This document shows, piece after piece, positions 4,343-63,989 of a DNA stretch of 64,000 bases. Numbering within the stretch: the first letter of the stretch is position 1; every line of letters begins with the position of its first letter. A program made the position numbers and the translations under genes. The notes beneath the pieces were generated by a model. It was not told where the DNA came from and did no database searches. It saw only the letters and a list, made by a program, of their open reading frames with translations. The stretch comes from Sphyrna mokarran. Its lineage: Eukaryota. The stretch lies in contig JAGIQG010000004.1 in the NCBI GenBank assembly GCA_024679065.1, forward strand, positions 111,166,001 to 111,230,000. Reading direction: 5' to 3'.

Positions 4343-4816
4343 CATGATATGGAGATGCCAGCGTTGGACTGGGGTAAACACAATAAGAAGTCTCACAACG
4401 CCAGGTTAAAATCCAACAGGTTTATTTGGTAGCAAAAGGCACTAGCTTTCAGAGCGCTGCCCCTTTGTCAGGTGAGTGGGAGTTCTGTTCACAAACAGGG
4501 TATGTAAAGACACAAACTCAACTTACAGAATAATGATTGGAATGCAAGTCTTTACAACTAGTCAAGTCTTAAAAATACAGACAACATGAGTGGCGTGAGC
4601 ATTAAGCACAAGTTAAAGAGATGTTGTTGTCTCCAGACAGGATAGCAAGTCCAGGCAAATCATGGGGGTTACAAATAGTGTAACAAGAACACAAGATCCT
4701 GGTTGAGGCCGTCCTCATGTGTGCAGAACTTGGCTATCAGTCTCTGCTCGGCGATTCTGCATTGTCGTGTATCATGAAGACAGCCTTGGAGAACACTTAC
4801 CCAAAGATCAGAGGCC
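4343..4816 (-). mobile_element. Penelope-like element 3' fragment (GIY-YIG C-terminus and pLTR with degenerate hammerhead motif)
   Basis: The minus strand encodes ASDLWVSVLQGCLHDTRQCRIAEQRLIAKFCTHEDGLNQDL, followed by pLTR CCTGACAAAGGGGCAGCGCTCTGAAAGCTAG…AATAAACC…CCAGTCCAACGCTGGCATCTCC. Confidence 0.85.
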
Positions 4817-7784: not shown

Positions 7785-9025
7785 TTATTCACTTACAGGA
7801 TATAAACTTCACTGTTAGGTCAGCATTTATTGTCTCTCTCTAATTATCCATGGGAAAGTGGTTGTCATCTGCCTTCTTAAATTGTTGTAGCCCATGTGGA
7901 ATAGGTATACACACAGTACTCTTAAGGATGGAGTTCCAGGATCTTAATCCAGTGACAGCGAAGGAATGACAATATATTTACGAGTCCGGCTGGTGAGTGA
8001 CTCAGACATTCAGAGTGTCTGCTGCCCTTGTCCTAGATGGGGGTAATTGTGGGTTTGGACGGTCTGAGGAATCTTGATGAGTAGCCTCAATGCATCTCGT
8101 AGATTATATACACTGCTGTCACTGTGGCCAGAATTTTACCGATTGGCCCACTGCAGGAATCAGTGGGAATATTTTTAATTCTTTCATGAAATGTGGTTAT
8201 CTCTGGCAAGGTCAGCATTTAAGTATCCATCCTAAATTTCCCCTGAACAAATTGTGATGAGCTGTCCTCTTGGACTCTGCAATCTGTGCGGTGTAAGTAC
8301 ACCAACAATGCTGCTAAGGAAGGTGTTGACCCAGGAACGATGAAGGAATGGTGATAAATTTCTAAATCAGGATGGGACGTGCCTTAGATGGAAATGTGAA
8401 AGTGGTGGTCTGTCTATGCACCCCCTGTCCTTCAAGATGGCTCTGGTCACAGTTTTAGAAGATGTTGTCAAAGGACTCTTGGGGAGTCATTGCAATGCAT
8501 CTTGCAGATGGTGCATGCTGCAGCCAATGTTACAGGGAGTGAATGCCATATCATCCAGTAGCTTTAGCAGTCAAGTGGATTGTTTTGACAACCTTGAATA
8601 GAGCTACATGTAGCATTTTGTGGAAAGTACATCACCATATTCCTGACTTGTGCCTTGTAGATGGTGGAAAGGGTTGGAAAGTGGGGTATTTTCAAAAGAA
8701 TTGCAGACTCTGACCTGTTTTTCCAGCCACATTGTTTACATAGCTGGTCCAGTCAAGTTTCTGGTCAATGATAACCCTCCTTCCCCAAGATGTATATGGT
8801 GGGGAATTCCGTGATCACAATGGTTTTCAATGTCAATAGGAGATGGATAAATGCTCTCGTTGGAGAGGATCATTGCTTGACACTTGTTACTTGCACTTAT
8901 TGGTCTAAGTTTCAATGTGGTCCAGATTTTGCTGCATGTCAGAACAGACTGCTTCATTATGTGAAAGATGCAAATGAATGCAATAATTCATGAATATCCC
9001 ATCTTTTGATCTTATGATGAATCTT
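7785..9025 (-). mobile_element. Two tandem 3' fragments of the old CR1-group LINE
   Basis: Two reverse-complemented tails (…CAGCATTTATTG…CTAATT…) at about 7790 and 8180. RT-region similarity continues to about 9020 (ORF 8736-8957). Confidence 0.75.
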
Positions 9026-15715: not shown

Positions 15716-16024
15716 CTTTTAATAAGCTATTCTTCAATATGGGTTGGAAAGTTTTGTTGCTTCAGATAAATAAACGTGTTCCATTGTGCTGGTAAAGGTA
15801 AATACTACATATTATTAAGTACTATTGAACTGTTGTAATCATGAAAAATATGCACCAAAACATTACTTCTAAAAATAAGTGAGTCATAGTTCTTAAACTT
15901 GGACAGGGACATTTCCTGATCAAATTCTGTGAATTCCTGTTTCCTGTCAAAATTTATTGCTGATTGTGGCTTGATGAAGTTATCTCAAATAACCTTTAAA
16001 TATGAAATTTACTGAAATACTGCT

Positions 16025-16845
16025 GCTACTAGAGCAGATTAGAGGCTGGGTATTCTGCACTGAGTAACTCCTGTCTTGACTCCCAAGAGCCCGTCCACCA
16101 TCTACAAGGCTCAAGTTAGGAGAGTGATGATATATTCGTCATTTAGCTGGATGTTCCAGAAACGCTCATGATATTTGAGACTATTCAAGACAAAAGAGCT
16201 ACCCAAATGGAAACATTTACTCTAACATTGTTATGTGATGGCCACATGATTCATGACAGCAAATAGCCAAGGTTCACTAACAGCATGCCCTGGACATACA
16301 GTCTCTACCAATTAGAAAGCTAAAGCACTAGATGCATGGGAACACTGCAAATTCCTCTCCAAGTCACACAATATCCTAACTGTGAAATATATCACCATTC
16401 CTTCTCTGTCTGTTGGTCAAAATCCTGGAAATCACTACTTAATAGCGCTGTGGATAGAATTCCTCCTGTGCAGAAGGAAGCCATTTGGCTCATTGAGCAT
16501 ACATTGGCAACAATTGCACCCAGGCTCGATCCCCATAACCCCACATATTTACTCTGCTAATCCTCTGATACTAATGGACAATTTAGCATGGCCAATCAAC
16601 TTCTTAACCTGTCCCCTAGGAGGAAACCGGAGCACCCAGAGGAAAGCTATGCAAATACGGAGAGAGCATTCAAACTCCACACAAACAGTCACCGAGGCTG
16701 GAATTGAACCCAAATCCTGGGTCACAGCAGTGCTAATGGTTCAAGCTGCAATGGTTCAATAAAGCATATCACCATCATCCTTTCAAAAGCAATTAGGAAT
16801 AAGCAATAAATGCCTTGTTAGAGATGCCAACATCCATGAATGTAT
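16025..16845 (+). mobile_element. Old CR1-group LINE 3' end, interrupted by an HE1 SINE (about 16450-16740, -)
   Basis: CCACCATCTACAAGGCTCAAGTTAGG RT C-terminus and family tail CAAAAGCAATTAGGAATAAGCAATAAATGC. The SINE core is in reverse orientation in the middle. Confidence 0.75.
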
Positions 16846-18958: not shown

Positions 18959-20853
18959 GTGTCATCAGCAAACTTGAAAATCAAGATGGTGGGGAATTTG
19001 GCCACACAGTCATAGGCATATAAGAAGTATAGAAGGGGGCTGAGATCATCAATTACACTGCCCTCATCTATACAACTGTTACCTCCTTGAAAATCTTGAC
19101 ACGTTTGTTTGATATAAAGATGTTTGCAAATGTGGGGAGTTCCAGTCAATTCAAACTGTATTTCTATTGTGCTTAGAGATAGTGAAAATGTGAAAAATAA
19201 ACACATTTGGAAAAGTAAAAATGGTTGCTAAATAACCAGGGGCACTTTTCTGATTATTTTTTTTAAAGTAATTCATAGCATTTGGTTACAGAAATCTCCT
19301 TCTTAGCTTTACAAGAAGGACAATGATGCCAAGGGGTAATAGTTAAGAACTCAAGAGCAGAAATCGAAAGTGCAACTAGTAAATGAAATGAGAAAAATAA
19401 AGAGAAATTTCCAAGAATTCTGAGTAGAATTGAAAGAGTAGAGGAAGCAGGGTCTAGAATAGGATACTGTTCAGTAGAGGCATTTGGGTAGTCATTGCTG
19501 ACAACCCAAACCTATAAGTCTATTAACAAGGCTGAAGTCAAGATTTTGATAGAGTACCAAACATTTGTTTTGATCCCTATATCAGTGTTACAATCTCAGT
19601 TACTGCTGCACAGAAAGTTCACAGAATGGAACTCTGGCTCAGAAGATTGTCATGTTTTACTATTTTACAAAAATGTGGAGGAAAATTACAGGGCTGTTAA
19701 TTAGTTTTTAAACAACAAAAAAACACAAAGCATGGGATTTTCTGGCCACGCTTGCCCCAAAGCCGGAAAATCCCTTGCATGATCAAGAGATCTTTGCATG
19801 GTCCACTTTCTATGATTCCTGTGGTTGGCAGGACGGGAAAATACTCCCCCAAAATGTTTGATTATAATACAATACTCCTTTAATACCCCCGCTTAGCTTC
19901 ACAAATATATACTGTTTTCAAAAATAACACCCCATTTGGAAACCAAATGGCTGATGCCACTTAACCAATTTTCCATGGATTTCTGTCAAATTCCTCACAG
20001 ATGATTGTCATATAAGTGCTTCCAAACTCCATTCCCAAAAAAACACACTTTAAACTCTTCTTTCAAACAATGTTTTAATCAGCTGTTTTCATCAAGAATC
20101 TCACTTCAGGTTTTCCAACTGTCTTTTCAGGTAAAGCTTCTGGTCCATTGTTTTAACAATGAATCCAGACCCAGGTTTTCCACCTTTCCTTTCAGTCGTC
20201 CTTTGTCTTAAATGCTTTTGCACAAACTCCAGCCACCAATTTCCATAATAATTTAAAATAATATTTCACAAACTGTAGGAAGATATCATAAAACTTATAA
20301 TTATTTCAGGTATTTTTCTGGCCTCTCATGATCAATTCCTTTTCAGCTGCCTACCTCTACTGAACAGTATCCTATTCTAGACCCTGCTTCCTCTACTCTT
20401 TCAACTTCAAAATTCTTGGAAACTTCTCTTTATTTTTCTCATTTCATTAACTAGTTGCACTTTCGATTTCTGCTCTTGAGTTCTTAACCATTACCCCTTG
20501 GCATCATTGTCCTTCTAGCAAAGCTGAGAAAGAGATTTCTGTAACCAAATGCTATAAATTACTTTTAAAAAAATAATCAGAAAAGTGCCCCTGGTTATTT
20601 TTACTTTTCCAAATGTGTTTATTTTTCACAATCTCTAAGCACAATAGAAATATAGTTTGAATTGACTGGAACTCCCCACATTTGTAAACATCTTTATATC
20701 AAACAAACGTGTCAAGATTTTCAAGGAGGTAACCAGTTGTATAGATGAGGGCAGTGTAATTGACGACCTCAGCTCCCTTCTATACTTCTTATATGCCTAT
20801 GACTGTGTGGCCAAATTCCCCACCAACTTGATTTTCAAGTTTGCTGATGACAC
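18959..20853. repeat. Long inverted repeat: arms 18959-19480 and 20354-20853, 873-bp spacer
   Basis: The arms are reverse complements at roughly 93-95% identity by eye with a few short indels, e.g. GTGTCATCAGCAAACTTGAAAATCAAG / CTTGATTTTCAAGTTTGCTGATGACAC. Confidence 0.95.
19733..19850. mobile_element. MITE (same family as 5215-5342)
   Basis: TGGGATTTTCTGGCC…GGGAAAATACTCCCCC. Confidence 0.65.
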
Positions 20854-21676
20854 CACCGTAGTGGATCGGATCTCAAAGAATGATAAGACAGAGTACAGGA
20901 ATGAGACAGAGAATCTGGTGAACTGGTGCAGAAACAATAATCTCTCCCTCAATGTCAACAAGACAAAGAAGATCATCATCATCTTCAGGAAGTCTGGAGG
21001 AGAACATGCTCCTGTCTACATCAATGGGAATGAAATAGAAAGGGTCAAGTGTTTCAAGTTTTTAGTGTCAGATCACCAACAACCTGTCCTGCTTCTTTCT
21101 AACACTATAGTTAAGAAAACCCACCAACGCCTCTACTTTCTGAGAAGATTAAGGAAATTTGGAATGTCAGTTACGACTCTCACCAACTTTTAAAGATGCA
21201 CCATAGAAAGCATTCTTTCTGGCTATATCACAGCTTAGTATGATCCCTGCTCTACCCAAGACTGCAAGAAATTACGAAAGATCATGATTGTAGCCCAATC
21301 CCATGCAAACTCACCTCACATCCATTTACTTTGTCTATGCTTCCCAGTGCCTCAGCAAAGCAGCCAATATAATTAAGGACCCCACACAGCCCAAACATTT
21401 TCTCTTCCAGCTTCTTCCATCAAGGAACAGATACAAAAGTTTGAGGTTATGTACCAACCAACTCAAGAACAGCTTTTTCCCTGCTGCTGTCAGACTTTTG
21501 AATAGACCTTTAAGTTGATCTTTCGCTACACCCTAGCTATGACTGTAACACTACTTCTGCACTCTCGTTTCCTTCTCCATGAACAGTATGATCTGTCTGA
21601 AGAGCATGCAAGAAACAATGCCTTTCACTGTATGCTAAATGCATCTGAAAATAATAAATCAAATCAAATCAAATAA
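20765..21676 (+). mobile_element. Rex1/Babar-clade LINE, 5'-truncated
   Basis: ORFs contain IFKFADDTTVV…LVNWCRNNNLSLNVNKTK…QRLYFLRRLRKFG and NSFFPAAVRLLN. The tail is CTTTCACTG…AATAATAAATCAAATCAAATCAAAT. Confidence 0.9.
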
Positions 21677-22021: not shown

Positions 22022-22745
22022 GTATTTGGAGGTACATGTTTCCTGTGATCCATGACCCTTTTAACTCATGCTTCATGGGTCACATGACTGGACAGGAGCC
22101 AATGGGACAGGAACACATGAACCTGGGCCAACGGGAATGAGGATAAGCATTTCTGGGGCTGAAAGACTTTAGAACATAGAACATAGAACATAGAACATTA
22201 CAGCACAGAACAGGCCCTTCGGCCCTCGATGTTGTGCCGACCAAAAAAAAGCAATGCCCCTCCAAACTAAACCATTCCCTTCTCTTCCATATACTTATCA
22301 ATTAACCTCTTAAACGCCACCAAACTTGGCGCATCTACAACAACTGCAGGCAGGGCATTCCACTCCCTAATCACTCTTTGAGTAAAGGACCTACCTCTGA
22401 TATCCGTCCTATAACTCATACCCTTAATTTAAAGCTGTGTCCCCTCGTGCTAGCTTTCTCCATCCTAGGAAAAAGGCTATCACTGTCCACCCTATCTAAA
22501 CCTCTAATCATCTTATATGCTTCAATAAGATCCCCTCTTAGCCGCCTCCTTTCTAACGAAAACAACCTCAAATCCTTCAACCTCTCTTCATAGGACCTGC
22601 CCTCCATACCAGGCAACATCCTGGTAAACCTTTAGTTGGAGTCAAGGTATTGCTAGGAGTAGACCAGTACTGTTGTCTGTTAAACCCTTCATTGTATATA
22701 GTTCTTCTTATTAATAAATCCTTTAGATAGTTATTTGCCACATTA
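22022..22745 (+). mobile_element. Putative solo LTR, split by a young CR1 insertion
   Basis: TG start, GGTCACATGAC/CCAAT promoter-like block, and AATAAA near the end. The sequence rejoins across the CTTTAG duplication. Confidence 0.4.
22173..22631 (-). mobile_element. Young CR1 (HER1-like) LINE, short 5'-truncated copy
   Basis: ORF MLPGMEGRSYEERLKDLRLFSLERRRLRGDLIEAYK, a (TGTTCTA)n tail, and flanking CTTTAG at 22167-22172 and 22630-22635 (possible TSD). Confidence 0.95.
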
Positions 22746-26104: not shown

Positions 26105-26460
26105 CCAGTATTCCAGAAGAATTGTAGCTGGATTTGTAATTCAGAATCCAGCACTAATTTTCTAGAAACCAAGGTTAAATCTCAACCCAGCATTTGGGGC
26201 TATTTAAATTAAATTAGTTTATAAGTCAGGAATAAAGAGCTTGCCACAGTAATGATAGTCATGAAATTACTGGAATATCATAAAAAACCCAGCTCATTCA
26301 CTAATGTCCTTTAGAGTAGGAAATTTGTCATTCTTACCTGATCTGCCTGATAGGTGATTCTACGTCCACAACAAAGTTATTGACTCCTAACAACCTCTGG
26401 GAGAACCACTCACTTGCCACAATCACCAACTTGATGACAATTAAGGATGCTAGCTTGCCT
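26105..26460 (+). mobile_element. Degenerate SINE of the tRNA-head/CR1-group-tail family
   Basis: CCCAGCTCATTCACTAATGTCCTTTAGAGTAGGAAATTTGTCATTCTTACCTG matches 28415-28470. Confidence 0.65.
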
Positions 26461-27620
26461 ACATAGAACATAGAACATTACAGCACAGAACAGGCCCTTC
26501 GGCCTTCGATGTTGCGCCGACCAATATAAAAAGCAATGCCCCTCCAAACTAAACCATTCCCTTCTCTTCCATATACTTATCAACTAACCTCTTAAACGCC
26601 ACCAAACTTGGCGCATCTACAACTGCTGCAGGCAGGGCATTCCACTCCCGAACCACCCTTTGGGTAAAGAACCTACCTCTGATATCCGTCCTATAACTAT
26701 CACCCCTTAATTTAAAGCTGTGTCCCCTCGTGCTAGCTTTCTCCATCCTAGGAAAAAGGCTATCACTGTCCACCCTATCTAAACCTCTAATCATCTTATA
26801 TGTTTCAATAAGGTCCCCTCTTAGCCGCCTCCTTTCTAACGAAAACAACCTCAAATCCCTCAGCCTCTCTTCATAAGACCTGCCCTCCATACCAGGCAAC
26901 ATCCTGGTAAACCTCCTCTGTACCCTCTCCAATGCCTCCACATCTTTCTTATAATGTGGGGACCAGAACTGCACACAATACTCCAAGTGCGGCCGCACTA
27001 GAGTTTTGTACAGTTGCAACATGACGTTGCGGCTCCGAAATTCAATCCCCCTACCAATAAAAGCTAAGACTCCATATGCCTTCTTAACAACCTTCTCGAC
27101 TTGACTGCCTACTTTCAGGGATCTATGCACATACACACCAAGATCCCTCTGTTCATCAAGACTACTAAGAATCCTACCATTAGCCCTATACTCTACACAT
27201 TTATTATTCCTGCCATAGTGCATTACCTCACACTTTTCCACATTAAACTCCATTTGCCACCTCTCGGCCCAGCTCTGCAACTTGTCCAAGTCCCTCTGCA
27301 AACTATAACACCCCTCTTCACTATCTACCACTCCACCGACTTTAGTGTCATCTGCAAATTTACTAATCCATCCTTCAATACCCTCATCCAGATCATTTAT
27401 AAAAATTACAAACAGCAGGGGCCCCAAAACAGACCCCTGAGGTACACCACTTGTCACCGAACTCCAAGATGAATATCTCCCATCAACCACCACCCTCTGT
27501 CTTCTATCTGCTAGCCAATTCCTAACCCAATTAGCTAAATCACCCTCTATCCCATACATCTGCATTTTCTGCAGAAGTCTTCCATGGGCCACCTAATCAA
27601 ATGCCTTACTAAAGTCCATA
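26461..27620 (-). mobile_element. Young CR1 (HER1-like) LINE, 5'-truncated, 1.16 kb
   Basis: (TGTTCTA)n tail and an uninterrupted ORF2 fragment. Near-identical to 22173-22631 and 60074-60829. Confidence 0.97.
26549..27592 (-). CDS. CR1 ORF2 reverse transcriptase C-terminal fragment (347 aa, open but truncated; probably not expressed)
   Basis: GVPQGSVLGPLLF, SKFADDTK, LVRPHLEYCVQFWSP and LERRRLRGDLIE motifs. Confidence 0.9.
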   Translation of the reverse strand: MAHGRLLQKMQMYGIEGDLANWVRNWLADRRQRVVVDGRYSSWSSVTSGVPQGSVLGPLLFVIFINDLDEGIEGWISKFADDTKVGGVVDSEEGCYSLQRDLDKLQSWAERWQMEFNVEKCEVMHYGRNNKCVEYRANGRILSSLDEQRDLGVYVHRSLKVGSQVEKVVKKAYGVLAFIGRGIEFRSRNVMLQLYKTLVRPHLEYCVQFWSPHYKKDVEALERVQRRFTRMLPGMEGRSYEERLRDLRLFSLERRRLRGDLIETYKMIRGLDRVDSDSLFPRMEKASTRGHSFKLRGDSYRTDIRGRFFTQRVVREWNALPAAVVDAPSLVAFKRLVDKYMEEKGMV

Positions 27621-29056
27621 AAAGTACATTCTATGAATAAATAAAATCAACTTTTTAAAAAAAGATTAGCAATATACTTCAGAATACTAGCAGCTGAATT
27701 CTCACTTCCAAGGTATCTCACGATGGGGAAAGGTTCTGGTTCACTCTGGTCCAGACCCACTCTGATGAAAAGGATTCTTTCACATAAAATTCTTGCTTCA
27801 AGATAGCAGGGGCAGAACCAAGTAAAGCCTGATGACCCCAGAAGCAGATTGGACGTAACAATGGAAGTGGATGAATGTCAAGGCAGGCTGTTTGGAAGGC
27901 TAGCCTCAGTTCCTGGGACTTTGTCTCAATTATATCAAAAGTTACTCAGCCCTCAAGCTGTCATTCCCCACACGGCCACCATTCGCCATGTTTCTTCCCT
28001 CCATCCATGCTGGTTCCATTCCAGCTCATGCTCCCATGTCACTTTATAGACTATGTCAACTTGTAATCTCATGACACCTTCATAGTTACTCACCAGCGTC
28101 TATGATGAGCAGACCATGGCAGCCATGTGGGGATGACAAGGTATTTTAACAACTGAATAGGATTCATACATATATCATGCCCATGCAGCTGTACTCATGG
28201 AGTTATGGAAAATTTACATATTTTGTTTAAAAACAAAATGGAAAATGGACAGTAGTGAAGTGGTATTGTCACTGGACTAATAATCCAGGCACACAGGGAC
28301 TGGGGCCTAGGTTCAAACTCCACCATGGTAGATGGTGAAACTTTGATTCAATAAAAATCTGGAATTAAAAGTCTATTGATGACCATGACAATTGTCAATT
28401 GTTGGAAAAAATCTATCTGGTTCACTAATGTTCTTTAGGGAAGGAAATCTGTCATCCTTACTTGTTCTGGCCTACGCGTGACGCCAGATCCACAGCAATG
28501 ACTGTTAAATGCCCTCTGAAATAGTTGGACAAGACATTCAGTTACATAAATCACTAAAAAGTCTAAAAGGAATGGAACCCAGTGGGGCACCTGGCATCGC
28601 TCGAGGTGCAGAACACGACAACTGAAGACTGAGACCTATCAGATCTGCAAACAACTCCTTACTAACGTCTGAGGACTTGTGCCAAAATTGGGAGTTACCT
28701 CACAGACAGGTCATAGTCTTAAAACACCACCTTACAGAAAATGTCACAGACATCACTGTAACCATCCCTGAGCATGTCCTGTCCCATTGGCAGGATAAAC
28801 TCAGCAGAGGCGGTGGCATGGAGGCATACAGTGGGGAGGCAGCTACTCAACATTGTTTCATGACATCAGGTCACATGGGGCAAGGAAACCTCCTGTTGAT
28901 TTCTACATACCCATAGACTGACTCCCGTCTTCACTCCCATTCCCCACAATGTTGAACACTATTGGGGGAAAGCACTGTGTAGTTGGGGGACTTCAATGTC
29001 CATCACCAAAAGTACCTTAGCAACAGCACTACTGACTGAACTGGCCATGTCCTTCA

Positions 29057-29210
29057 GTGAGAAGTCTCACAACACCAGGCTACAGTCCAAAAGGTTTATT
29101 TGGTAGCACAAGCCACAAGCTTTTGGAGTGCTGTTCCTTCGTCAGGCCAGTGGGAGTTCTGTTCACAAACAGGGCATATAAAGACGTAAACTCAATTTAC
29201 AAAACAATAA
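29057..29210 (-). mobile_element. Penelope pLTR fragment inserted in the LINE (hammerhead motif CTGACGA…AAAAGCTT)
   Basis: Matches 4380-4530 and sits at the point of a large internal deletion of the host LINE. Confidence 0.8.
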
Positions 29211-29777
29211 TGTACAGAAAAATAATGTCCTTTGAGACATAGTTAGCAACGGCCACTCAGCTCCTGACCTCATTACAGCCTTGGTTCAAACACGGATAAA
29301 AAAAAGCTGAACTCTAGACACGAGCTGAGAATGATTATACTTAACATCAAGGCAGCATTTGACTGAGGGTGGTAACAAGGAAGCCAAGCATTTGGAATCA
29401 GAGGAGAAACTCTCCATTGGCTGGTGTTCAGAAAGGAAGGTTGTTGTTGTTGGAAGTCAATCACCTCAGTAACCACCACTGCAGCTGTTCCCCAAGGTCA
29501 TGTCCTCAGCTTAACCATCTCCATCTGGATCACCAATGACCTTCTTTCCATCATAAAGTCAGAAGTTTTAGCTGATGATTGCACAATATTCAGCATCTTC
29601 GTAACTCCTCAGATCGTATCCAAAAGCAACAAAACCCCGACAACATCCAGGCTTGGGCTGACAAATGATACATCACTTTTTCGCCACACAAGTGCTAGGC
29701 AATGATCATCTCCAACAAGAGGAAAACTAACTGTTGCCCCTTGACATTCAAAGGCATCACTAAATCCCCTACGATCA

Positions 29778-30052
29778 ATAGAGAAACATAGAATCTCTAC
29801 AGTGCAGAAAGAGGCCAATCAACCTATAATGTCTGCACTAATTCTCTGAAAGAGCATCCCACAAGGTTCTCCTTTTCCTCCTATCCTCATAACCCTGCAC
29901 AATTCCCATGGCTAACCCACTTAACCTACAAACCTTTGGATTGGGGGAGGAAACTGGAGCACTCAGAGAAAACCCACAGGGAGAACATGCAAACTCCTCA
30001 CAGATAATTACCAAATGGTCTATGAGGCAACAGTGCCGAGCATTGTGCCACT
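29778..30052 (-). mobile_element. HE1-type SINE inserted in the LINE RT region
   Basis: Reverse-complemented tail CATAGAATCTCTACAGTGCAGAAAGAGGCC and V-core. The host RT resumes at about 30053. Confidence 0.8.
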
Positions 30053-31697
30053 CCACATCCTGAGGTTCACCATTGATCAAAACTTGAACTGAAGTGTTCA
30101 TATAAATACTGTGATTATCAGAACAGTTCAAAGGCTCGGAATCCTGCATTGAGTATATCACCTCTTCTCTTCCAAATGCCTGCCCACCATCTATAAGGCA
30201 CAAGTCAGGAGTGTGATCGAATGCTCTCCACTTGCCATCATGAGTGCAGCTCCAACATCACTCAGGAAGCTTGACACCATCCAAGGCAAATCAGCTCGCT
30301 TTATTGGCATGCCATTGATAAATATCCACTCCCTCCACCAGAGGTACACAGCGGTAATATTAAGTAGCAATGAGTACTAGTTATAAAATGCATTTCAGCA
30401 ACTAACAAGGCTTCTTAAACAATACTTTCAAATCCTGTCCACTACTGTCTAGAAGGACATGGATATCAGACACATTGGAATACCAGCTACTGGAAGTTCC
30501 TTTCCAAGCCAGTCATCGGTTTGACTTAGAAATATATCTCCGTTCCTTCACTGTTCTTTCTCTAATGCTGGCACAAAATTCCAGAATTCCTTCCTTAACA
30601 GCACTGTGAGTGTATCTGTACCGCATGGAAAGCAGCGATTAAAGAAAGTGGCTCACCATCACCTTCTCAAGGGCAATTAGGGTCAGGAAATGAATGCTGG
30701 CCAAGTCAGTGATGCCCACATCCCACAGATGAATAATAAAAAAAAACAAACAAAATGGAATTGAGAGGTTAGGTGACCTCATTTAATTTCTGCCAACATA
30801 AATGGAACTGCACAAGATGTGAAATTGGCTTACTTGTCTGGCAGGACATTAAAATGCAAATGAGCTTTGAAAACATTTCACTGAGAAGACATTAAAATGC
30901 AACTGGCATTTAATGTGGAATTAATGGCTACCACTGTCCAAATACCTGCAATGGCCTTACAGGCTTCTTGGCAATGGAATTGAATTCAGCAGAATAACAA
31001 TGAAGATAAACCCATTCTATCACAGGTAGGTGCAAGTGGATGAAGCACAAGCACTATAGCGTTTTATTGCCCAAGTCATCAGAAACCATCTGTATAGACA
31101 ATGGTAAACAAATACTCTGCTCACCAGAGAGAAACCAGGCTGTGAAAAGAAATGTTTATTTAAACAGACATTTGGAGACTCACTCAGTCAATGGGGTTGC
31201 ACGGACAGATGGAGACAAGGAAAAAAAGAAGCACCCTGCCTAAAATCCATCAGAAGGCAGTGAATTGTGGCTATCTTAATCTGTCAACTTGAAGGACCAA
31301 AGCAATTGTTCACCAGAGGGTTACAACTGCACCTTGACTGAGTTAAACTTGAAAACTCGCTGCTTTAAGTTGTAACCCACGACAAATTCATTAACATAGG
31401 GCCCTACTTTACCATTTTCATTCCAAGTGTAGGTCAACTTGAAACTGAGAGTGGAGTTTTAGGCCCATTCTGAGATGCCCCCGTACACACTCTGCCTGAA
31501 AAAATATCAGCAACTCTGAATCACACTGCAGAAGCCTGTGGATGGGGTTTAACCAAGAAGATCAGTGGCCTCATTAGGGCAATAAGGATGAGTGATTAAC
31601 CCCATCCAGCTTTGCCCAAATCTCCCCAGATCCTCCCATCCCCAGCAGCCTGCATGTTCCCTTGACCCCCAAGCACCTTTGTCTTACATTAGCTGCT

Positions 31698-31724: not shown

Positions 31725-32059
31725 CCAACAGCCAAGAGTAACATTGCACTTGCCTTTTAAGGGCCACCACCTGATAGTCTGCAGGAATCATGCCACCATT
31801 TCTTTCATGGCTCCTTCAGCCCCCACAGGAGAACACTAACGATAACACCAAAGAGGCAAAGACAGGGGGGTGGTGAGCCAGACCTTTGGATTCTCACTCC
31901 TTTGAAGAGCGGGCGCTATAGCTGTCCAGAGAAGGGAAGATGAGGGCTGTCAGTGACAGCATGGTTGGGCTGGAGTCAAGATATGAACACCTCTCAATCT
32001 TCCGGTCAATTTGAGGCAACTTCTCGGGAGCATGTTGAATGTGAGGTGAGAGGAGCAAG

Positions 32060-32302
32060 GAGATTTTAGAGGCATGTTTATTTGCATGGACATGGTGGTG
32101 CCTGGAACTCAATGCCAGAGGAGATTGTGAAGACAGATATGAGAGTGACTTTACAGCTATGTGAATGGGATGGGAATAAAGGCATATGGTCCCCAGAAGG
32201 GTAGGAGTTACAATTCAGATGGGCAGCCTGGTCACTGCAGGTTTGGAGGGCCAAAGGGCCTGTTCCAATGATGTAATCTTCTTTGTGCTTTGTTTGATGT
32301 TC
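32060..32302 (+). mobile_element. CR1 3' fragment in the ORF1 intron
   Basis: GTGGTGCCTGGAACTCAATGCC…GGAGGGCCAAAGGGCCTGTTCC…TCTTTG tail. Confidence 0.75.
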
Positions 32303-32947
32303 AGTGGAGAAATGTGAATCAAGTTTTTTGCATCCCACGTTCCTTTCCCTTCCTTGCACTTAACTTTGTGCCCTGTGTTGCAGGGACACATCCAGATACC
32401 CCAGGGCCTTCTGACATTGTGGCCCTGACTGCGGCCCCTGACCATCATGCTCCAGGTATCTCAGACAAATCCTTGGAGGATACGGCTGAAGGGACTTCCA
32501 AGGGCGGCACCGGTTTGGTGTCAGCATCCACCCCGCAGTTCACCACCTCAGATACTGACACAGTGGTGGCTCCAGTTAATGGTGAGGCCTCTGGGTCACA
32601 ATGTGGTGAACATGACACATCTGCTGATGTACATTGGGTGGAACGTCCAAGGCCTCTGGCATGCAGGGGCCTACCGGAGGCGAGGACTCAACTGGCCCCA
32701 GGCTACATGCTGGGCCTCTGAAATCACTTCTCCCTCAACTGCTGGAGATGCAGCAACAGGGCCAGAGAATGCAGGAGGAGCTGATGGCCTCACTGGACTG
32801 ACTATGAGGCTTTTGGGAGGAGTCCCAAAGCTTTCAGGCAGAGCAGCTATTGCTTGGGTTCCCAGGCCAACACTGCAAGGGCGGTGTCTGCGGTGGAAAG
32901 TCTTGGGCAGGAAATACTCACCATGAGTGGCAGGCTCCAAGCGATGG

Positions 32948-33053
32948 CTGAGTCACAGCAGGCCACAGTAGAGTCCCAGAGGGGCACGACTGAGATGCAC
33001 CAGGCCACAGCAGAGTCCCAGAGGGGCATGGCTGAGATGCACCATGCCACAGC
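32948..33053 (+). repeat. 42-bp (2 x 21) coding tandem repeat encoding heptads
   Basis: AESQQATVESQRGT-TEMHQATAESQRGM-AEMHHATA. Confidence 0.9.
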
Positions 33054-34284
33054 TGGGGAACTCAGAATTTTCAAAGTCGTGCTGCCTATGACTGAGAGAC
33101 TCAAGTGCTTGCATGACATCCAGCAGGACAGAGATGGGAAACTAAAGCCTCATAGCCAAGTAGCAGAGAGTCATGGCTGAGGTGTTACAGAGTGTGGCCC
33201 ACTCTCAGAAGACACTTGCTGCGGCCTTGGCATGTGGTCCCCATCTCAGGTGACAATCGCAGAGGACTCGACCACGATGGGTAGGGCATTGATGATTCCC
33301 CCAGGACTAGTAAAGCCAGCCAACACCAGGGCTTCTAGAACTCACTGCAGAAGGACTGTTGCCCCATGGAATGACCCAGGGGCCCATAAGAACCCTAAAG
33401 GAGGAAGAAGGGCTCGAGACTATGCTGGGGCCTTCCAGCCAGGAGACTGTGGCTGTGGCTCTGACTCCCCTCTTCCTTACATGGGGCATCTCAGGGACAG
33501 CGGGATGAAGAGGGTATCATGAAAATATCCCAGACACCTGGAAGCTGGCCAAGGCTCTGACGGTGCAGGGCCTCCAGAGGATGCCTGGCTAGCACATCAG
33601 AAGCCATGGGGCAATGTAGGCAACTGTCTCCCTCCACCTCTGATTTAATTCTCAGTAGATACTGAGACATAGGCCACATAAGGTTAGGAAGTTATAACTG
33701 CACTAAAATGGCACGGGTGAAGGGCTGCACTTGTTAGATAGGTCTTTAAGCACCTTAATGTTTTCCATTCACATGTTCTTATGTTATAATTATTATTTAA
33801 ACATCCTCATGTTTATCATTAAACGTTTTTTCACCACTTACCTGTGACTAAATTGTTTCTGATTTGTCGTGAACAGGAATCCGCTTCCATTGACGATCGT
33901 TGGAGGGATGCTTCATTAATGGGGAGGCCTCTCAGTGCTAGACTGAGAAAGGAAACTATTGGTTCCCCAGAACTCACAAGTGACTCAAACTCTTGACCCA
34001 CCCAACCTGCCGCAGGGCCCTGTACAGGGTTTTCAGATCCCTTAACCACTGCACAGGTATGGGTCCAGGTGCCAGCATGCATGTGGAGCTCAGGTAGAAG
34101 TCAGACTAACTTGCACCAGGGCATCATCGTAATGGTGCTTAGCGAGTCATCATCCCCTCCTGTCTGCCAAAGAAATTCACTCATACGGCGTACCCAGGTC
34201 CACCGCTCTGGTGTGACAATGTTACAAGAGACAGGAAGACTTTGGGGAGGGGGTGGGGAATGGAACCCAGGTGTATAGATACAG

Positions 34285-35410
34285 TGACTGAACCGCCTGG
34301 TGATCGGGGCCTCCCTCGCCGCCCTCCATGCTTCATTCGAGCTGCCAGGCCATCAGTGCGTGGGTGGTGTTTCTCAGGGTCCTCCTCCTTTTCTTCCTCC
34401 TCCTGCTGGGCAGCCTACTCCCCAGCAGCACCCCTCCTCCTCCAATATGTCACCTCTCTGCTGAGCGAGGTTGTGCAGGGCCCAGCACACGACCACAATG
34501 CAGGAAGAGATTAGGGGGTTGCATTGTAAGGCCCCACCAGAGTGGTCCAGACTCTGTAATTGCATTTTGAGGAGCTCTATGCACCTTTTCCACTATAGAG
34601 CAGGCAGCTACATGAGCCTCATTACAGTAAGTCTCCGCCTCAGTCACAGGCCTCTGCACAGGTGTTATCAGCAATGTCCGAAGCGGGTAAGGCATATCAC
34701 CCACGAGCCACCCCCGCAGCCTGGGCTCCTCCTCGAATACCTCCGGGATTTCAGAGCTCCTGAGAGTGCAGTTGTTATACACACTGCCTGGTGTCACACG
34801 CAGCCATGCATAATGTACATATTGTGGTCACATTCAGCGAGTGGAACTCTTTCCTGTTGATGAATCTTCATGGATTCTGCAGCAGGACCTTGAGAGTGAC
34901 ATGGGCTCATTTGATGGCCCCCTGTTCATTAGGTATCCCCACAGTGGCTGCGAAACCTTCAGCCCGGGCTTCCTGCTGGGCCTGTCCAAGTTAAATTTGA
35001 TGTTCTGCTCAGCCCGGACATACAGGGATTCCATGACCTGCTTGACACAGATGTGCACAGCTAACTGGGAAATGCCGCATTCATCTCCGCTATGGGTTTG
35101 GAAGGAGTCAGTTGCATAAAGGTTCAGAGTGGCCGTCAGTTTGAAAGTCACTGAGAATGGCTGCCCACCCCTTCCCCCTCCCCCACCCCCCATCCCGAGG
35201 TGCCAGATCCAGCAACAGATGGCACAGGTGTTGCACTGTCTCCTCTGGGTGAATGACGGACTCCCGCCTATAGTGGTTGTTCCTCTTTACTCCTGCAAGT
35301 GGTGAGGCTTGGGCCTCCTGTATCCACAACTCACCCTCCTGCTCCTCCCCCTCAGCTCCAGCAGCAACCAAAAGAAGGGCAAGATTGATCAGTTGCATCG
35401 CAAATGCCAT
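34285..35410 (-). pseudogene. Harbinger (HARBI1-like) DDE transposase, frameshifted
   Basis: LNLYATDSFQ…GDECGISQLAVH, FINRKEFHSLNV, PGSV…GWLVGDMPYPLRTLLITPV…NEAH, and IVVVCWALHNLA. The ATG at 35410 follows a CCCTTCAG acceptor. Confidence 0.92.
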
Positions 35411-35520
35411 CTCTGAAGGGTGGACGGTTAAAGAAGCAGAGGGACACATGTAGAGGTTAAAGAATGCTGCTTGCTCTTAGCCCAGCAACACACACTGTCC
35501 ATATTGCCCATTCCCCCACC

Positions 35521-35927
35521 ATTATAGACTCATTTCCCCACTCACATGTTCCCCAGCATCACAGACCCCTCATTCCCCCACTCACATGTTCTGCAGAATC
35601 ACAAACTCTTCATTGCCCCATCCACATGCTCCCTAGAATCACAGACCCCCCATTTCCTCACCCATGTGTGTCCCAGCGCCACAGACCACCCAATCCCCAA
35701 CCACATGCTCCGTAGAATCACGGAGCCCCCAATTCCCAGCCACATGCTCTATAGAATCATAGACCCTTCTTTCCCTACCCACATGCTCTCCAACATCACA
35801 GACCCCTCCCAGTCCCCACCCGCCTACTCCCCAGAATCACGGCCCACCCCTCTCCATTCCACCTCTCACATGCTCCTTAAAATCACAGACCCACAATTTC
35901 CCCAGCCACTTGCTCCCCAAAATCACA
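35521..35927. repeat. About 40-bp C-rich minisatellite (about 10 diverged units) in the putative 5' intron of the transposase
   Basis: The CACATGCT…AGAATCACAGACCCC unit recurs (CTCACATGTT at 35541 and 35581). Confidence 0.9.
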
Positions 35928-36405
35928 CTGTGTACTACCTCTGCACTAACCCTCACTGATGGAGCGCCTGAATCAGACTTTGATGGAGCGTGTCTGTTTC
36001 ACGCCAATTCCAGATTGGTGAATGTGGTGGTAAAGGAGGAAATATCTGTAAAGTTGGGCATGTAGCCCATTAAGTGGTTTGAAATGCATACGAGTACATA
36101 TAAATGGCCATCAGGACTGCTTTGAGTGTTGTCCTGATGGTGGCCATTTTTGGCTCTTGATAAAGGTGGAATTGGCACAGAAGTGGGCACGGATCACACT
36201 ACTCGCCTCACGCCCAACTTTACCAATTTTTTGTGCCTGAAAACGGGCACAATGTGATGGTAAAATCATCTGCCTTAAACTTCCAATCTCTATTTCTTTC
36301 GTGAATAAAAAAGAAATCATCAAACCTCAAGAAAGTCAAATATAATATCGTATTCTGACTGTTAAGACATAAGTGCATGCTACCTCTTCTGTAATTATCT
36401 TTTCT

Positions 36406-37589: not shown

Positions 37590-38110
37590 AATGGTGGCTT
37601 AGTGATAATATCCCTCGAGTAGAAATCTAGAAAGTCCTAATTACATCTTCGAGGGACATGGGCTCAGACTCATCCCAGCAGCTGGTGGGATTCAAATTCA
37701 ATTAATAATGTTTGGAATTGAAATCTGGACCAGAATTTTCTCATCCTGCCTGCCATGGAAATCAAAGGGAGGGAGAAGTGTTGCGGGGGGAAGTTGCAGT
37801 GGACTATGCAAGGTGCAGTGACCTTGGGAGGCATTTTCCAGTGTGGGAGTGAGTGCAGCCAGAAAATCCTGCCCCTAATCTCAGTAAAGTTGATGATGAA
37901 ACAAACATTGATTGTCCAAAAAAAATCTACCTGGCTCACTAATGTCCTTCAAGGAAGGAAGTCTGCCTGTTCTGGTATTCAAGTAACTTCAGATCTATAG
38001 CAATGACTCTAAACTGTCCCCTCCTGAAGTGACCCAGCAAGCTATTCAGTTTAAAAGCAGTTAGTAACAAATGCTGGCCAGTAATGCTCACATTCCTTGA
38101 AAGAACAAAT
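37590..38110 (+). mobile_element. SINE of the tRNA-head/CR1-group-tail family, with a MITE inserted at 37727-37875
   Basis: Head TGGTGGCTTAGTG and core CTCACTAATGTCCTTCAAGGAAGGAAGTCTGCC. The junction CAAGCTATTCAGTT|TAAAAGCAGTTAG leads into the LINE tail. Confidence 0.75.
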
Positions 38111-43640: not shown

Positions 43641-44004
43641 GTGAAGGCATCTTTAGCTATATCACTATGTTATTTTGAAGAAAAAGGTAAATATGTTACA
43701 AAAATATAGCTAGCAGTATCTTCAAGGGATGGGCGTAGCTGTACAAAGACTGCAGATAGATTCTCTGAGGAAATACAAATTTAAGAACTTGCGTTAGACT
43801 TTTCACGGAAGTAAAGTGGTGCTGGCCCCCATTATAAATAGTTCAAGTCACCACCAGCATTCTCTTCAGAAAAACAAGATGCCCACCGGGTGGGAAAACG
43901 GGAGAATTTCTCACTCTTTTTTTTTGAGCGTATTTACCTGAACAAATCTCCAACACTTCATGATCACAGAGTGCCCATCCCCCCCAAAGAAGGGGCCAAG
44001 AGTC

Positions 44005-44322
44005 ATTGGTTCAAATCTTACAATGAAATTGGCGGAATTTGAATTCAGTTAATGAAATTTGAAATGTAGAAATGTCTCAATAATGGTGAAACTACCATTG
44101 GTTGTTGTCAAAAGCCCATACGGTTCATTAATGTCCTTTATGGGACCAAATTTGCTGTTGTTACCTGGTCTGCTAACATGTGACTCCAGACACACAGCAA
44201 AATGATTGATTCTTGACTAGCCTCTGAAATGAATAGACAAGCCACTCATTTCAAGGGCAAATAGGGCTGGACAATAAATGCTTGTCTTGTCAGTGGTGCC
44301 CAAATCCCATGAAAGAAAAAGA
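44005..44322 (+). mobile_element. SINE of the tRNA-head/CR1-group-tail family
   Basis: GGTTCAAATC B box and core. The junction GACAAGCCACTCATT|TCAAGGGCAAATAGGG at 44250/44251 joins directly to the LINE tail. Confidence 0.8.
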
Positions 44323-45327
44323 ATCACGTTTAGATCTTAGGACCTATGTTGAGCCCTAGTTACAATTTTACTATTCTGGCTCCTTCTGCACTCTTTTAAC
44401 TTGTGATCACTGCGGCAAGACAATTTTTATGAGCAGACCAAGACCCCATTGACATTTTCTCATTCTTCCATGAGATGTGTGCATTGCGGGCAAGGCCACC
44501 CTTCACTGTCTATCAATAATTGCCTGTGATCAGGTCATAGTGAGACTCTTTCTAAACGTATCCCTTTGAAATGCTGTAAGCAAAGTATGTAGGATGTCTC
44601 TCAAAGTTTTCTAGTCTATCTGGAGGGCAATAATTATCACACTGTGAGTTCAATATGCTCATTCTTATACAAATAACCTTATTTTACCAGCTGAATAACA
44701 TACATTCACAGACACAAGTGAGATAACAAAAAAGATAATGCTAGCCTTAGGCAATATCTAAACTGACAGTTTGAATCTGATTGACATTGAGCCGCCGTTA
44801 GTCATTGCATGTGGTTAAGGTGGTGTCAAGTGAGACCAGGAACCACAATACATTTTCTCACTTCTATACTATATTTGCTCTGATACTAAGAGTGGACAGG
44901 TTCACAGATCAAGCAACTAATTTTTTACAACTTAGGACAAATAATGCCTGCTTGTTACACATGGCAGCAATTGAAACAATGGCTGTTGTCTTCTAAGCCT
45001 GCTGTGCTGCTCGAATAGCACAGCAAGCTTTTATTGGAACTTGTGATTGGCATTCAGCTGAGTGCAAATCTCCGAGGTCCGTTTTTACAGCATAATCAAT
45101 TCCTCCCAAGCAATTTCCATATGTTAAGTATCTTCCTGCCTCCCCTCTCCCCCCACCTTTGCTGGGGGAGATTCCCATCAGCAGGGTTTACAACTGCTCC
45201 CCACTAACAGGGAAGAGACTTCCTCACCCAGCTGTTAGGGATAGAGGCCATTAAGGGCCCCCTGGGAAGTCAGGGGCACAGGTTGCCCCGAGCCAGCCTG
45301 ACACCCTGCTACTGCCCTGAGCACTGA

Positions 45328-58489: not shown

Positions 58490-58805
58490 GGCAGCACAGT
58501 AGCACAGTGGTTAATGCTGCTGCCTTACAGCTCCAAGGACCAGGTTCAATTTCTAGTTTGGGTCACTGCCTGTGTGGAGTTTGCACATTCTCCCCATGTC
58601 TGCATGGATTTTCTCCCAGTCCTCCTCCCATAGTTAGGTTGATTGGCTATGCTAAATTACCCCTTAGTTACCTAGGATGTGTAGGTTAGAGGGATTAGTG
58701 GAGTAAATTTGTAGGGGTTAGGGTCTGGGGTGGGATTGCTGTAGGTGCAGACTCAATGGGCTGAATGGCTTCCTTCTCCACTGTAGGGTTTCTATGATTT
58801 CTATA
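58490..58805 (+). mobile_element. HE1-type SINE, full length
   Basis: GGCAGCACAGTAGCACAGTGGTTA head, V-core and CR1-like tail ATGGCTTCCTTCTCCACTGTAGGGTTTCTATGATTTCTAT. Confidence 0.88.
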
Positions 58806-59890: not shown

Positions 59891-60073
59891 GGTTCCCTCT
59901 GTCTGGTTCCCGTTTTACCTATTATAAACCTCACCGATGTAACCTCACATCAGCGAGGAAGAGATTCCAATGTGGGGGTACAATACACTGGGGAAACCCT
60001 TTAATTAATTATAATTTGTCTTGATGAGCTGCCTGATCATTTTGGGTGAGGTCTTCAGGAACAATAAATTCCT

Positions 60074-60829
60074 GGCAGGAACAATAAATGTGTAGAGTAT
60101 AGGGCTAATGGTAGGGCTCTTAATAGTGTTGAGGAACAGAAGGATTTTGGTGTATGTGTCAATAGATCCCTAAAAGTAGGCAGTCAAGTGGATAAAGTTG
60201 TTAAGAAGGCATATGGAGTCTTAGCTTTTATTGGTAGGGGGATTGAATTTCGGAGCCGCAGCATCATGTTGCAACTGTACAAAACTCTAGTGCTGCCGCA
60301 CTTGGAGTATTGTGTGCAGTTCTGGTCGCCACATTATAAGAAAGATGTGGAGGCATTGGAGAGGGTACAGAGGAGGTTTACCAGGATGTTGCCTGGTATG
60401 GAGGGCAGGTCCTATGAAGAGCGGTTGAAGGATTTGAGGTTGTTTTCGTTAGAAAGGAGGCGGCTAAGAGGGGATCTTATTGAAGCATATAAGAGGATTA
60501 GAGGTTTAGATAGGGTGGACAGTGATAGCCTTTTTCCTAGGATGGAGAAAGCTAGCACGAGGGGACACAGCTTTAAATTAAGGTGTATGAGTTATAGGAC
60601 GGATATCAGAGGTAGGTTCTTTACTCAAAGAGGGATTAGGGAGTGGAATGCCCTGCCTGCAGCTGTTGTAGATGCGCAAAGTTTGGTGGCATTTAAGAGG
60701 TTAATTGATAAGTATATGGAAGAGAAGGGAATGGTTTAGTTTGGAGGGGCATTGCTTTTTATTTTGGTCGGCACAACATTGAAGGCCGAAGGGCCTGTTC
60801 TGTGCTGTAATGTTCTATGTTCTATGTTC
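60074..60829 (+). mobile_element. Young CR1 (HER1-like) LINE, 5'-truncated
   Basis: ORF 60188-60739 (183 aa) is nearly identical to the C-terminus of 26549-27592, with a (TGTTCTA)n tail. Confidence 0.95.
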
Positions 60830-61015: not shown

Positions 61016-61358
61016 CGTGATGTAGAGATGCCGGTGTTGGACTGGGGTAAACTCAGTAAGAGGTCTGACAACACCAATTTTAAATCCAACCGATTTATTT
61101 GATAGTAAACTTGCAAGCTTTCGGCCTTTGGAGCCTTTGTCAGGCGAACGAGGTATTCTGGTCTGCAATAGCACACATATCAGCACAGACAGTTTACAGA
61201 TTGCTGATTAGCTGTTCCCTGTCTGTGCTGATATGTGTGCTATTGCAGACCAGAACACCTCATTCGCCTGACGAAGACTACAAAGGCCAGAAGCTTCCAA
61301 GTTTACTATCAAATAAATTGGTTGGATTTAAAAATGGTGTTGTCAGACCTCTTACTGA
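61016..61358. mobile_element. Palindromic Penelope pLTR pair (arms 61053-61192 and 61219-61358)
   Basis: The arms are reverse complements with the inner 37 bp perfect. Each arm carries a hammerhead-like motif. The left arm alone continues into the pLTR 3' extension shared with 4343-4380. Confidence 0.9.
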
Positions 61359-63466: not shown

Positions 63467-63989
63467 AGGGCAGCACAATGGTTAGCACTGCTGCTTCATA
63501 CATCCAGGGACCCAGGTTCAATTCTCGGCACGGTCTGTATGTTTTTGTGTCAGTGTGGGTTTTCTCCAGAAGGCTATTGGACCCCATTATGTGCGTCCAC
63601 TCTTTATAGAAAAAATCACTTAGTGCCATTCTCCGATCTTCTCTCCATAGCCAAGCACATTCTCCCTTTTCAGATAACACAGTTTGTTGCAATGGTGGCA
63701 CAATGGTTAGTATTGCTGCCTCACAGCCAAGGACCCGGGTTCGATTCCCAGCTCGGGTCACTGTCTATGTGGGGTTTGCACATTCTCCCCATCTCTACAT
63801 GGGTTTCCTTCGGGTGCTCCAGTTTCCTTCCACAATCCAAAAGATGTGCTGGTTAGCATGAATTGGCCTGCTACATTTTCCTTCAGTGTACCTGAACAGG
63901 CTCTGGAATGTGGAGACTGGGGGATTTTCACAGTAACTTCATTGCAGTGTTAATGCAAGCCTACTTGTGATACTAATAAATAAACTTTT
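63467..63989 (+). mobile_element. Two V-type SINEs: truncated (63467-63590) and full type B (63692-63989)
   Basis: B boxes GGTTCAATTCT and GGTTCGATTCC. The second copy ends TTTTCACAGTAACTTCATTGCAGTGTTAATGCAAGCCTACTTGTGATACTAATAAATAAACTTT. Confidence 0.9.

Follow-up and report, generated by a model that had tools for sequence, protein, structure and literature searches.

A tRNA-like head on an elasmobranch Zenon LINE and its probable transcription by Pol III

By the textbook division, SINEs are non-coding and are transcribed by Pol III, and LINEs are transcribed by Pol II or by Pol I read-through. Pol III normally makes only short non-coding RNAs, and the element described here, to judge from its sequence, was likely a protein-coding element that it transcribed. 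The nearest described systems, as given in the available parts of the cited reports, each share some features with this locus. Zenon has been reported from five elasmobranchs, hagfish, and coelacanth, in all cases without ORF1 and with a poly-A tail (PMC13343379). A tRNA-like LINE head has one precedent in the sources available, RTE-1_DAn together with related elements, in which a LINE carries tRNA-like sequence matching many tRNA-SINEs, but these belong to the RTE clade and not to Zenon (PMC5786205). In Lepidoptera, Zenon likewise has a short, internally deleted partner, Persaeus, built from the two ends of the LINE, 5′ and 3′, and bearing a poly-A tail, but Persaeus is described as having no homology with tRNA, 5S, or 7SL and no Pol III promoter, whereas the long and short shark forms both have A and B boxes (PMC6740152). 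The tRNA-SINEs mobilized by CR1-Zenon in bivalves (PMC11481361) and the shark elements SacSINE1 and HE1 (PMC5499810, PMC4824008) likewise consist of tRNA head, body, and LINE-derived tail, the tail of SacSINE1 having been described as L2 (PMC5499810); as reported, these SINEs are non-coding and have only the tail in common with their partner LINE, unlike the shark Zenon pair. Finally, Cassandra, Helenus, and Ajax are non-SINE retrotransposons with a small-RNA-derived Pol III promoter, as is predicted here, but they are short, non-autonomous LTR elements without an ORF, unlike Zenon (PMC10886601).

The present study analyzes one element in a window of 64,000 nucleotides from Sphyrna mokarran (contig JAGIQG010000004.1), "the window" being this whole stretch of DNA. 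The focal element, 28231..30760, can be identified from its sequence as a decayed, 5′-complete copy of the elasmobranch Zenon LINE, a family already catalogued in PMC13343379, where the tRNA-like head goes unremarked in the available text. Words from the window were found in the elasmobranch Zenon rows (one in 7/7, another in 5/7), and the focal copy was colinear by eye with these consensuses across their first 400 nt (head, body, spacer, and endonuclease start), which places it in the family. It is like the consensuses in this 5′ region, in having no ORF1, and in its A-rich tail (30733-30746), and unlike them in having lost approximately 1.1 kb and received two later insertions. The sequence-only reading had considered a missing ORF1 unusual for the CR1 group, a premise that does not survive its absence from every Zenon sequence surveyed in the available parts of PMC13343379; the focal copy likewise has none, with only about 420 nt between the target-site duplication (TSD) and endonuclease motif I. 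Canonical CR1, an esterase-ORF1 lineage with no poly-A tail, does not describe the focal copy, and the SINE class, being short and non-coding, does not describe the long form with its endonuclease and reverse transcriptase (RT) remnants. The features are as follows.

26106..26460, + strand: short SINE, second copy, more decayed, found by alignment to head and body
28231..28243, + strand: 5′ TSD, 13 bp, exact repeat
28244..28330, + strand: tRNA-like head, with A box (28253-28263), anticodon-type arm (28272-28288), long extra arm, and B box (28310-28320)
28331..28545, + strand: conserved body common to the short SINE form, aligning with three SINE copies of the window and with the Zenon consensuses
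28546..28663, + strand: LINE-only spacer, colinear by eye with the consensuses and covered by contigs in 4/4 runs
28640..29054, + strand: AP-endonuclease remnant with frameshifts and stops (tblastn to P0029 residues 50-187; Pfam PF14529)
29055..29232, strand unassigned: later insertion of another repeat, 178 bp, 84% identical to window 4386-4537
29250..29254, + strand: site of the ~1.1-kb deletion, at which the end of the endonuclease, the linker, and RT domains 0-2 were lost
29252..29772, + strand: reverse transcriptase remnant, domains 3-7 (Pfam RVT_1; tblastn)
29775..30056, - strand: reversed SINE with CR1-type tail, a later insertion of ~280 bp that interrupts the RT frame
30057..30680, + strand: C-terminal part of the single ORF, through its stop, a single frame of 208 codons broken by 7 stops
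30681..30747, + strand: short 3′ UTR and A-rich tail, common to the SINE form
30748..30760, + strand: 3′ TSD, 13 bp, exact repeat
37600..38110, + strand: short SINE, third copy, interrupted by ~160 nt of other sequence
43960..44323, + strand: short SINE, best copy, with head and body running straight into the LINE's final ~70 nt

The endonuclease and RT motifs noticed earlier appear weak on Pfam alone, where the matches to Exo_endo_phos_2 (E 0.013) and RVT_1 (E 0.003) are both below curated cut-offs, but they are real remnants, since tblastn with an intact 962-aa relative, P0029, gave E 2e-13 to 4e-4 and covered residues 50-187 and 586-862. A further Pfam match to an enterotoxin model (E 0.098) lay in the wrong frame and was dismissed as chance. 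Behind the 178-bp insert, which has its own 8-bp duplication (29047-29054 and 29225-29232) and was without cover at 29101-29200 in run X16, the endonuclease resumes for a few codons (29233-29250). There the P0029 residues jump from ~190 to ~565, i.e. approximately 375 codons are missing. In 4/4 runs, 349-440 contigs per run continue upstream with RT domain-2 sequence at 29251-29254, indicating that this loss is specific to the focal copy and not to the family. The reversed SINE, putatively of HE1/V-SINE type, has many partial matches elsewhere in the window. The C-terminal 208 codons matched 155 relatives at E<=0.001, the best values being 1e-24 to 4e-27; one of these relatives carries the name of whale shark and another that of amphioxus, and the closest are short fragments, the whale shark one included. 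Word-index protein searches returned nothing with a read-through query and, with a clean fragment, just exonized fragments and one distant RT, with no intact shark ORF; there was no relative of the element among viral contigs. L121, an invertebrate relative with an intact open frame of 1,004 codons, was the one full-length element out of 17 related loci in metagenomes; it did not match the head, and a tRNA scan of 14 of the 17, L121 included, called none.

Head, body, and ORF are shown by the flanks of the insertion to have been retrotransposed as a single unit. The 13-mer proposed earlier at both ends is exact, adjoins the first base of the head, cannot be extended, and occurs just twice in the window with both strands searched. 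Among 3,045 control window pairs at equal distance the longest shared word was 12, and 0/3,045 reached 13. Together with consensuses carrying the same junction, these controls support the proposal that head and LINE body moved together, if not the picture of one continuous unit, as the copy is now broken by the 178-bp insert, the reversed SINE, and the ~375-codon deletion. One contig of run X1, possibly the source sample, spans 28435-29078 with one difference, so that the join of head, spacer, and endonuclease cannot be put down to misassembly.

The positions given earlier for the A box, the arm, and the B box were all confirmed in the sequence. The anticodon-type arm reads CTGGA-7 nt-TCCAG, and the A-to-B distance of 46 nt is long on account of the extra arm. 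There were three pairs of A and B boxes at 20-60 nt spacing in the window, as against 0.085 per shuffle, with at least one pair in 16/200 shuffles. ARAGORN called no tRNA in the window and Rfam none at the decayed head, both tests applying to the decayed focal copy rather than to the published consensuses. The motif formed by the end of the D-loop and the arm lay inside an ARAGORN tRNA in 54/60 viral loci (the first 60 of 120 fetched), so the head looks tRNA-derived, and because these loci are spread over seven isotypes a parent tRNA cannot be named. Folding of the head was no better than that of shuffles (z 0.38), and the body likewise showed nothing beyond shuffles. At its 5′ end the focal copy thus has the A and B boxes expected of a type 2 Pol III head.

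The join of head, body, and ORF is shown to be the same in sharks and a ray, family-wide. We compared the first 400 nt of each of 1,003 vertebrate CR1-group consensuses from Table S2 of PMC13343379, and the same head, body, and spacer stood at the start of 7/7 elasmobranch Zenon consensuses in that supplement (CarCar_Zenon-1, ScyCan_Zenon-1, RhiTyp_Zenon-1, SquAca_Zenon-1/2/3, and HypSab_Zenon-1), representing five species, i.e. white shark, whale shark, catshark, dogfish (three consensuses), and stingray, with the endonuclease start visible within 400 nt in two of the seven. A junction unique to this locus, which would have counted against the earlier proposal, is thus not what was found. Six B-box 10-mers yielded 6 matches among the 1,003 consensus 5′ ends, all of them in elasmobranch Zenon; the stingray B box is one base short and was hence missed. 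The three Zenon 5′ ends from hagfish and coelacanth showed no such head by eye, and T4+ runs were present in them. Full consensus lengths are 2,886-3,314 nt and the best genomic copies 2,870-4,347 nt (Table S3 of PMC13343379), with 59-2,313 copies per family in the six families with counts, a figure whose denominator is undefined in the source. Intact ORFs were nearly absent in the same table (0/2313, 1/1419, 3/612, 1/294, 0/59, and 0/396), the few intact copies including one from whale shark, three from stingray, and some from dogfish, so autonomy of the headed form is something that we infer. The available text of PMC13343379 and of its preprint, searched for "tRNA", "promoter", and "polymerase (III)", contained no mention of them, and there was no description of the shark Zenon head in the literature searched, which underrepresents subscription journals and Repbase Reports. 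What is new relative to the catalogue is the conserved tRNA-like head, together with signs in the sequence that Pol III terminators were selected against.

A short SINE, by alignment, shares both ends with the Zenon LINE and is its non-autonomous partner. It is about 370 nt long and non-coding, as expected of a SINE, and its joint of head and body to the LINE end (28540 to 30667) occurs also in a contig of run X16. It may have given its head to the LINE by template switch or may be a product of internal deletion. The earlier figure of 110 bp from head to endonuclease holds if counted from the end of the SINE-shared sequence but not from the B box, which is followed by about 225 nt of SINE-shared body and about 120 nt of spacer before endonuclease motif I at 28664. 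DNA patterns derived from the body matched nothing in contigs from metagenomes, viruses, or genomes, and motif searches of published texts and of the available supplements of PMC4824008 (2/3 files) and PMC11481361 (8 files) turned up no SINE domain that contains this body. Within its first 450 nt the focal copy has eight ATGs. One of these, at 28572 in the spacer, is also in the consensuses; relative to the endonuclease it lies out of frame in the focal copy and, by eye, in the stingray consensus, and in frame in one gappy dogfish consensus. The endonuclease frame across the spacer of the focal copy is basic and without an ATG.

If Pol III reads through the element, runs of T on the sense strand should be rare, and the depletion that the sequence-only reading had predicted was found, with three controls. 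The 17 pieces of Zenon origin in the window, which total 5,062 nt with insertions excluded, had 6 sense T4+ runs against 14.9 expected from dinucleotide shuffles (0/500 shuffles as low), these pooled pieces being homologous decayed copies that cover ~2.0 kb of the ~3.3-kb element, with ~1.1 kb outside. A4+ runs in the same pieces were as expected (33 vs 33.4), and there was no depletion of T4+ either in ten pieces of CR1 from this window (36 vs 35.8 expected) or in the headless, intact L121 (9 vs 7.65). Five of the six T4+ runs are private to one copy where other copies cover the site, and at the sixth the family contigs in 4/4 runs have an extra G; the ancestor therefore probably had no T4+ in the ~2.0 kb covered. 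The focal copy alone, with 2 runs vs 4.9 expected, is not significantly depleted (94/1,000 shuffles as low). By eye there is no T4 in the first 400 nt of the seven elasmobranch Zenon consensuses.

The focal copy thus belongs to a Zenon family that encodes endonuclease and RT in a single ORF, begins at its 5′ end with a tRNA-like head bearing A and B boxes, and was probably transcribed by Pol III from that head, the combination of a tRNA-like promoter and avoidance of T-runs making Pol III transcription of a coding element likely. TFIIIC and Pol III would start ~8-10 nt upstream of the A box, and Pol III would read ~3.3 kb without a terminator and stop, as for Alu, at the first T4 in the flank, which for this copy is at 31062. 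The uncapped RNA would be translated cap-independently, which is the step with the least support, and, with the target nicked, the ORF protein would start reverse transcription by priming on the A tail, creating the 13-bp duplication. Priming on an A tail is standard for target-primed reverse transcription. With gene-internal Pol III promoters, reporter RNA was translated and removal of TTTT approximately doubled output, as described in the available part of PMC8223928, where the reporter measured ~0.5 kb, as against 3.3 kb here, and type-2 promoters were weak in the absence of infection. A broader scenario is plausible but falls a little short of an even chance in our judgment: in sharks and rays, since before their split, an abundant autonomous LINE would have had a tRNA promoter swapped in and terminators purged from its ~3-kb coding strand, would make its enzyme from an uncapped Pol III transcript, and would thus be a natural Pol III protein-coding gene, and one half of a SINE-LINE pair sharing both ends.

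An alternative explanation, unlikely in our view, could be a division of labor in which Pol III supplies the template RNA and the protein comes from Pol II transcripts of genic copies or of a headless Zenon master, so that the headed form is not autonomous in cis. This would account for both the head and the depletion of T-runs with no need for cap-free translation. Also in its favor are the out-of-frame position of the conserved ATG and the intronic location of about 30% of such repeats in whale shark, or 39% for CR1-Zenon, in the available part of bioRxiv 10.1101/443036; it fits poorly with the fact that 7/7 elasmobranch Zenon consensuses are headed, with no headless full-length form reported in the available parts of PMC13343379, and that their RT coverage is still near-complete and their endonuclease coverage mostly complete, for which a passenger would have no use. 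It is also conceivable, if rather unlikely, that the head is fixed in the family but is not a promoter, the RNA being made by Pol II from a promoter in the body or by host read-through and its 5′ end being set by the tRNA-like fold, e.g. by an RNase P-type cut. Ribozymes set the 5′ ends of R2 and RTE elements; a search for ribozyme families gave no match for either the head or the L121 5′ end. That a coding RNA requires translation suits Pol II, the consensus 5′ ends, 5-10 nt before the A box by eye, would also fit the 5′ end of a mature tRNA, and special 5′-end processing is described as frequent in single-ORF clades (available part of PMC5786205). Transcription by Pol II, however, does not predict a strand-specific loss of T4+ that is absent from the CR1 and L121 controls, and the A and B boxes of the published consensuses match the Pol III consensus.

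There could instead have been a one-off event at this locus, i.e. a single template switch or the landing of a SINE next to a truncated LINE, the 13-mer being a coincidence. Such an event would be compatible with the presence of three SINE copies within the window and with a head far commoner than the spacer in contigs of the runs compared. We regard it as extremely improbable, because the order of head, spacer, and endonuclease is identical in the 7 consensuses from 5 species, there is no SINE tail between body and spacer, the TSD lies beyond all controls, and single genomic copies of consensus length, as tabulated in the catalogue, argue against mis-extended consensuses.

If the preferred reading of Pol III transcription from the head is true, a LINE whose long copies number in the hundreds to thousands per genome has kept a tRNA promoter and lost its T-runs, breaking the polymerase rule, and Pol III sustains a 3-kb coding RNA in the vertebrate germ line. 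As the long and short forms have head, body, and tail in common, the pair would also offer a direct case for the origin of SINE bodies.

In a C-terminal tree of 16 rows, which contained no named Zenon protein, the focal copy grouped with shark fragments and invertebrate relatives and the CR1 copies of the window were separate from it, both with weak support. No empty insertion site was seen among contigs of the runs compared, whose depths were not taken as copy numbers. On the left flank, contigs of runs X3 and X9 align at about 87-89% identity as far as the first bases of the element, which suggests an old insertion common to related species.

Besides the focal copy, the window holds four Zenon fragments belonging to its family, each derived from the 3′ part of the element, and several other repeats:

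1780-2638, +, Zenon fragment, 3′ part
7787-8887, -, Zenon fragment, 3′ part
16015-16835, +, Zenon fragment, 3′ part
44462-44553, -, Zenon fragment, 3′ part
26549-27592, -, young canonical CR1 copy, 347-codon open RT frame retained
60068-60739, +, young canonical CR1 copy
22190-22631, -, young canonical CR1 copy
20666-21193, +, RT fragment of another LINE, 175 codons
29055-29232, short repeat, inserted in the focal Zenon copy
4386-4537, short repeat
61053-61358, short repeat
58500-58549, +, A+B box pair
63696-63744, +, A+B box pair

The three young CR1 copies, 94-95% similar to one another, were among the canonical CR1 copies used as the control for sense-strand T4+ runs. The other LINE is presumably Rex1-like, and the two A+B box pairs are likely the heads of the window's other SINE family. 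The short repeat inside the focal copy was found in contigs of three of the four sequencing runs and was without cover in run X16; the copies near 61 kb are oriented toward each other, and by resemblance we take the repeat to be possibly a Penelope-like element end. GC content is 51-54% across 32001-36000 vs a 40% background, and this stretch contains two open frames of 150-165 codons.

The invertebrate relative at metagenome locus L121 (421-3720) is an intact element whose open frame runs to 1,004 codons. Its 5′ region is GC-rich, and neither a tRNA nor an Rfam match was found there; its 3′ end is (TAA)n, not poly-A. Pieces of the Zenon ORF also occur, C-terminally or internally, in annotated shark protein isoforms (P0067, P0164-P0166) of nucleophosmin 1b, JmjC8, prostacyclin receptor and CAT4, and represent either exonised repeats or annotation noise.
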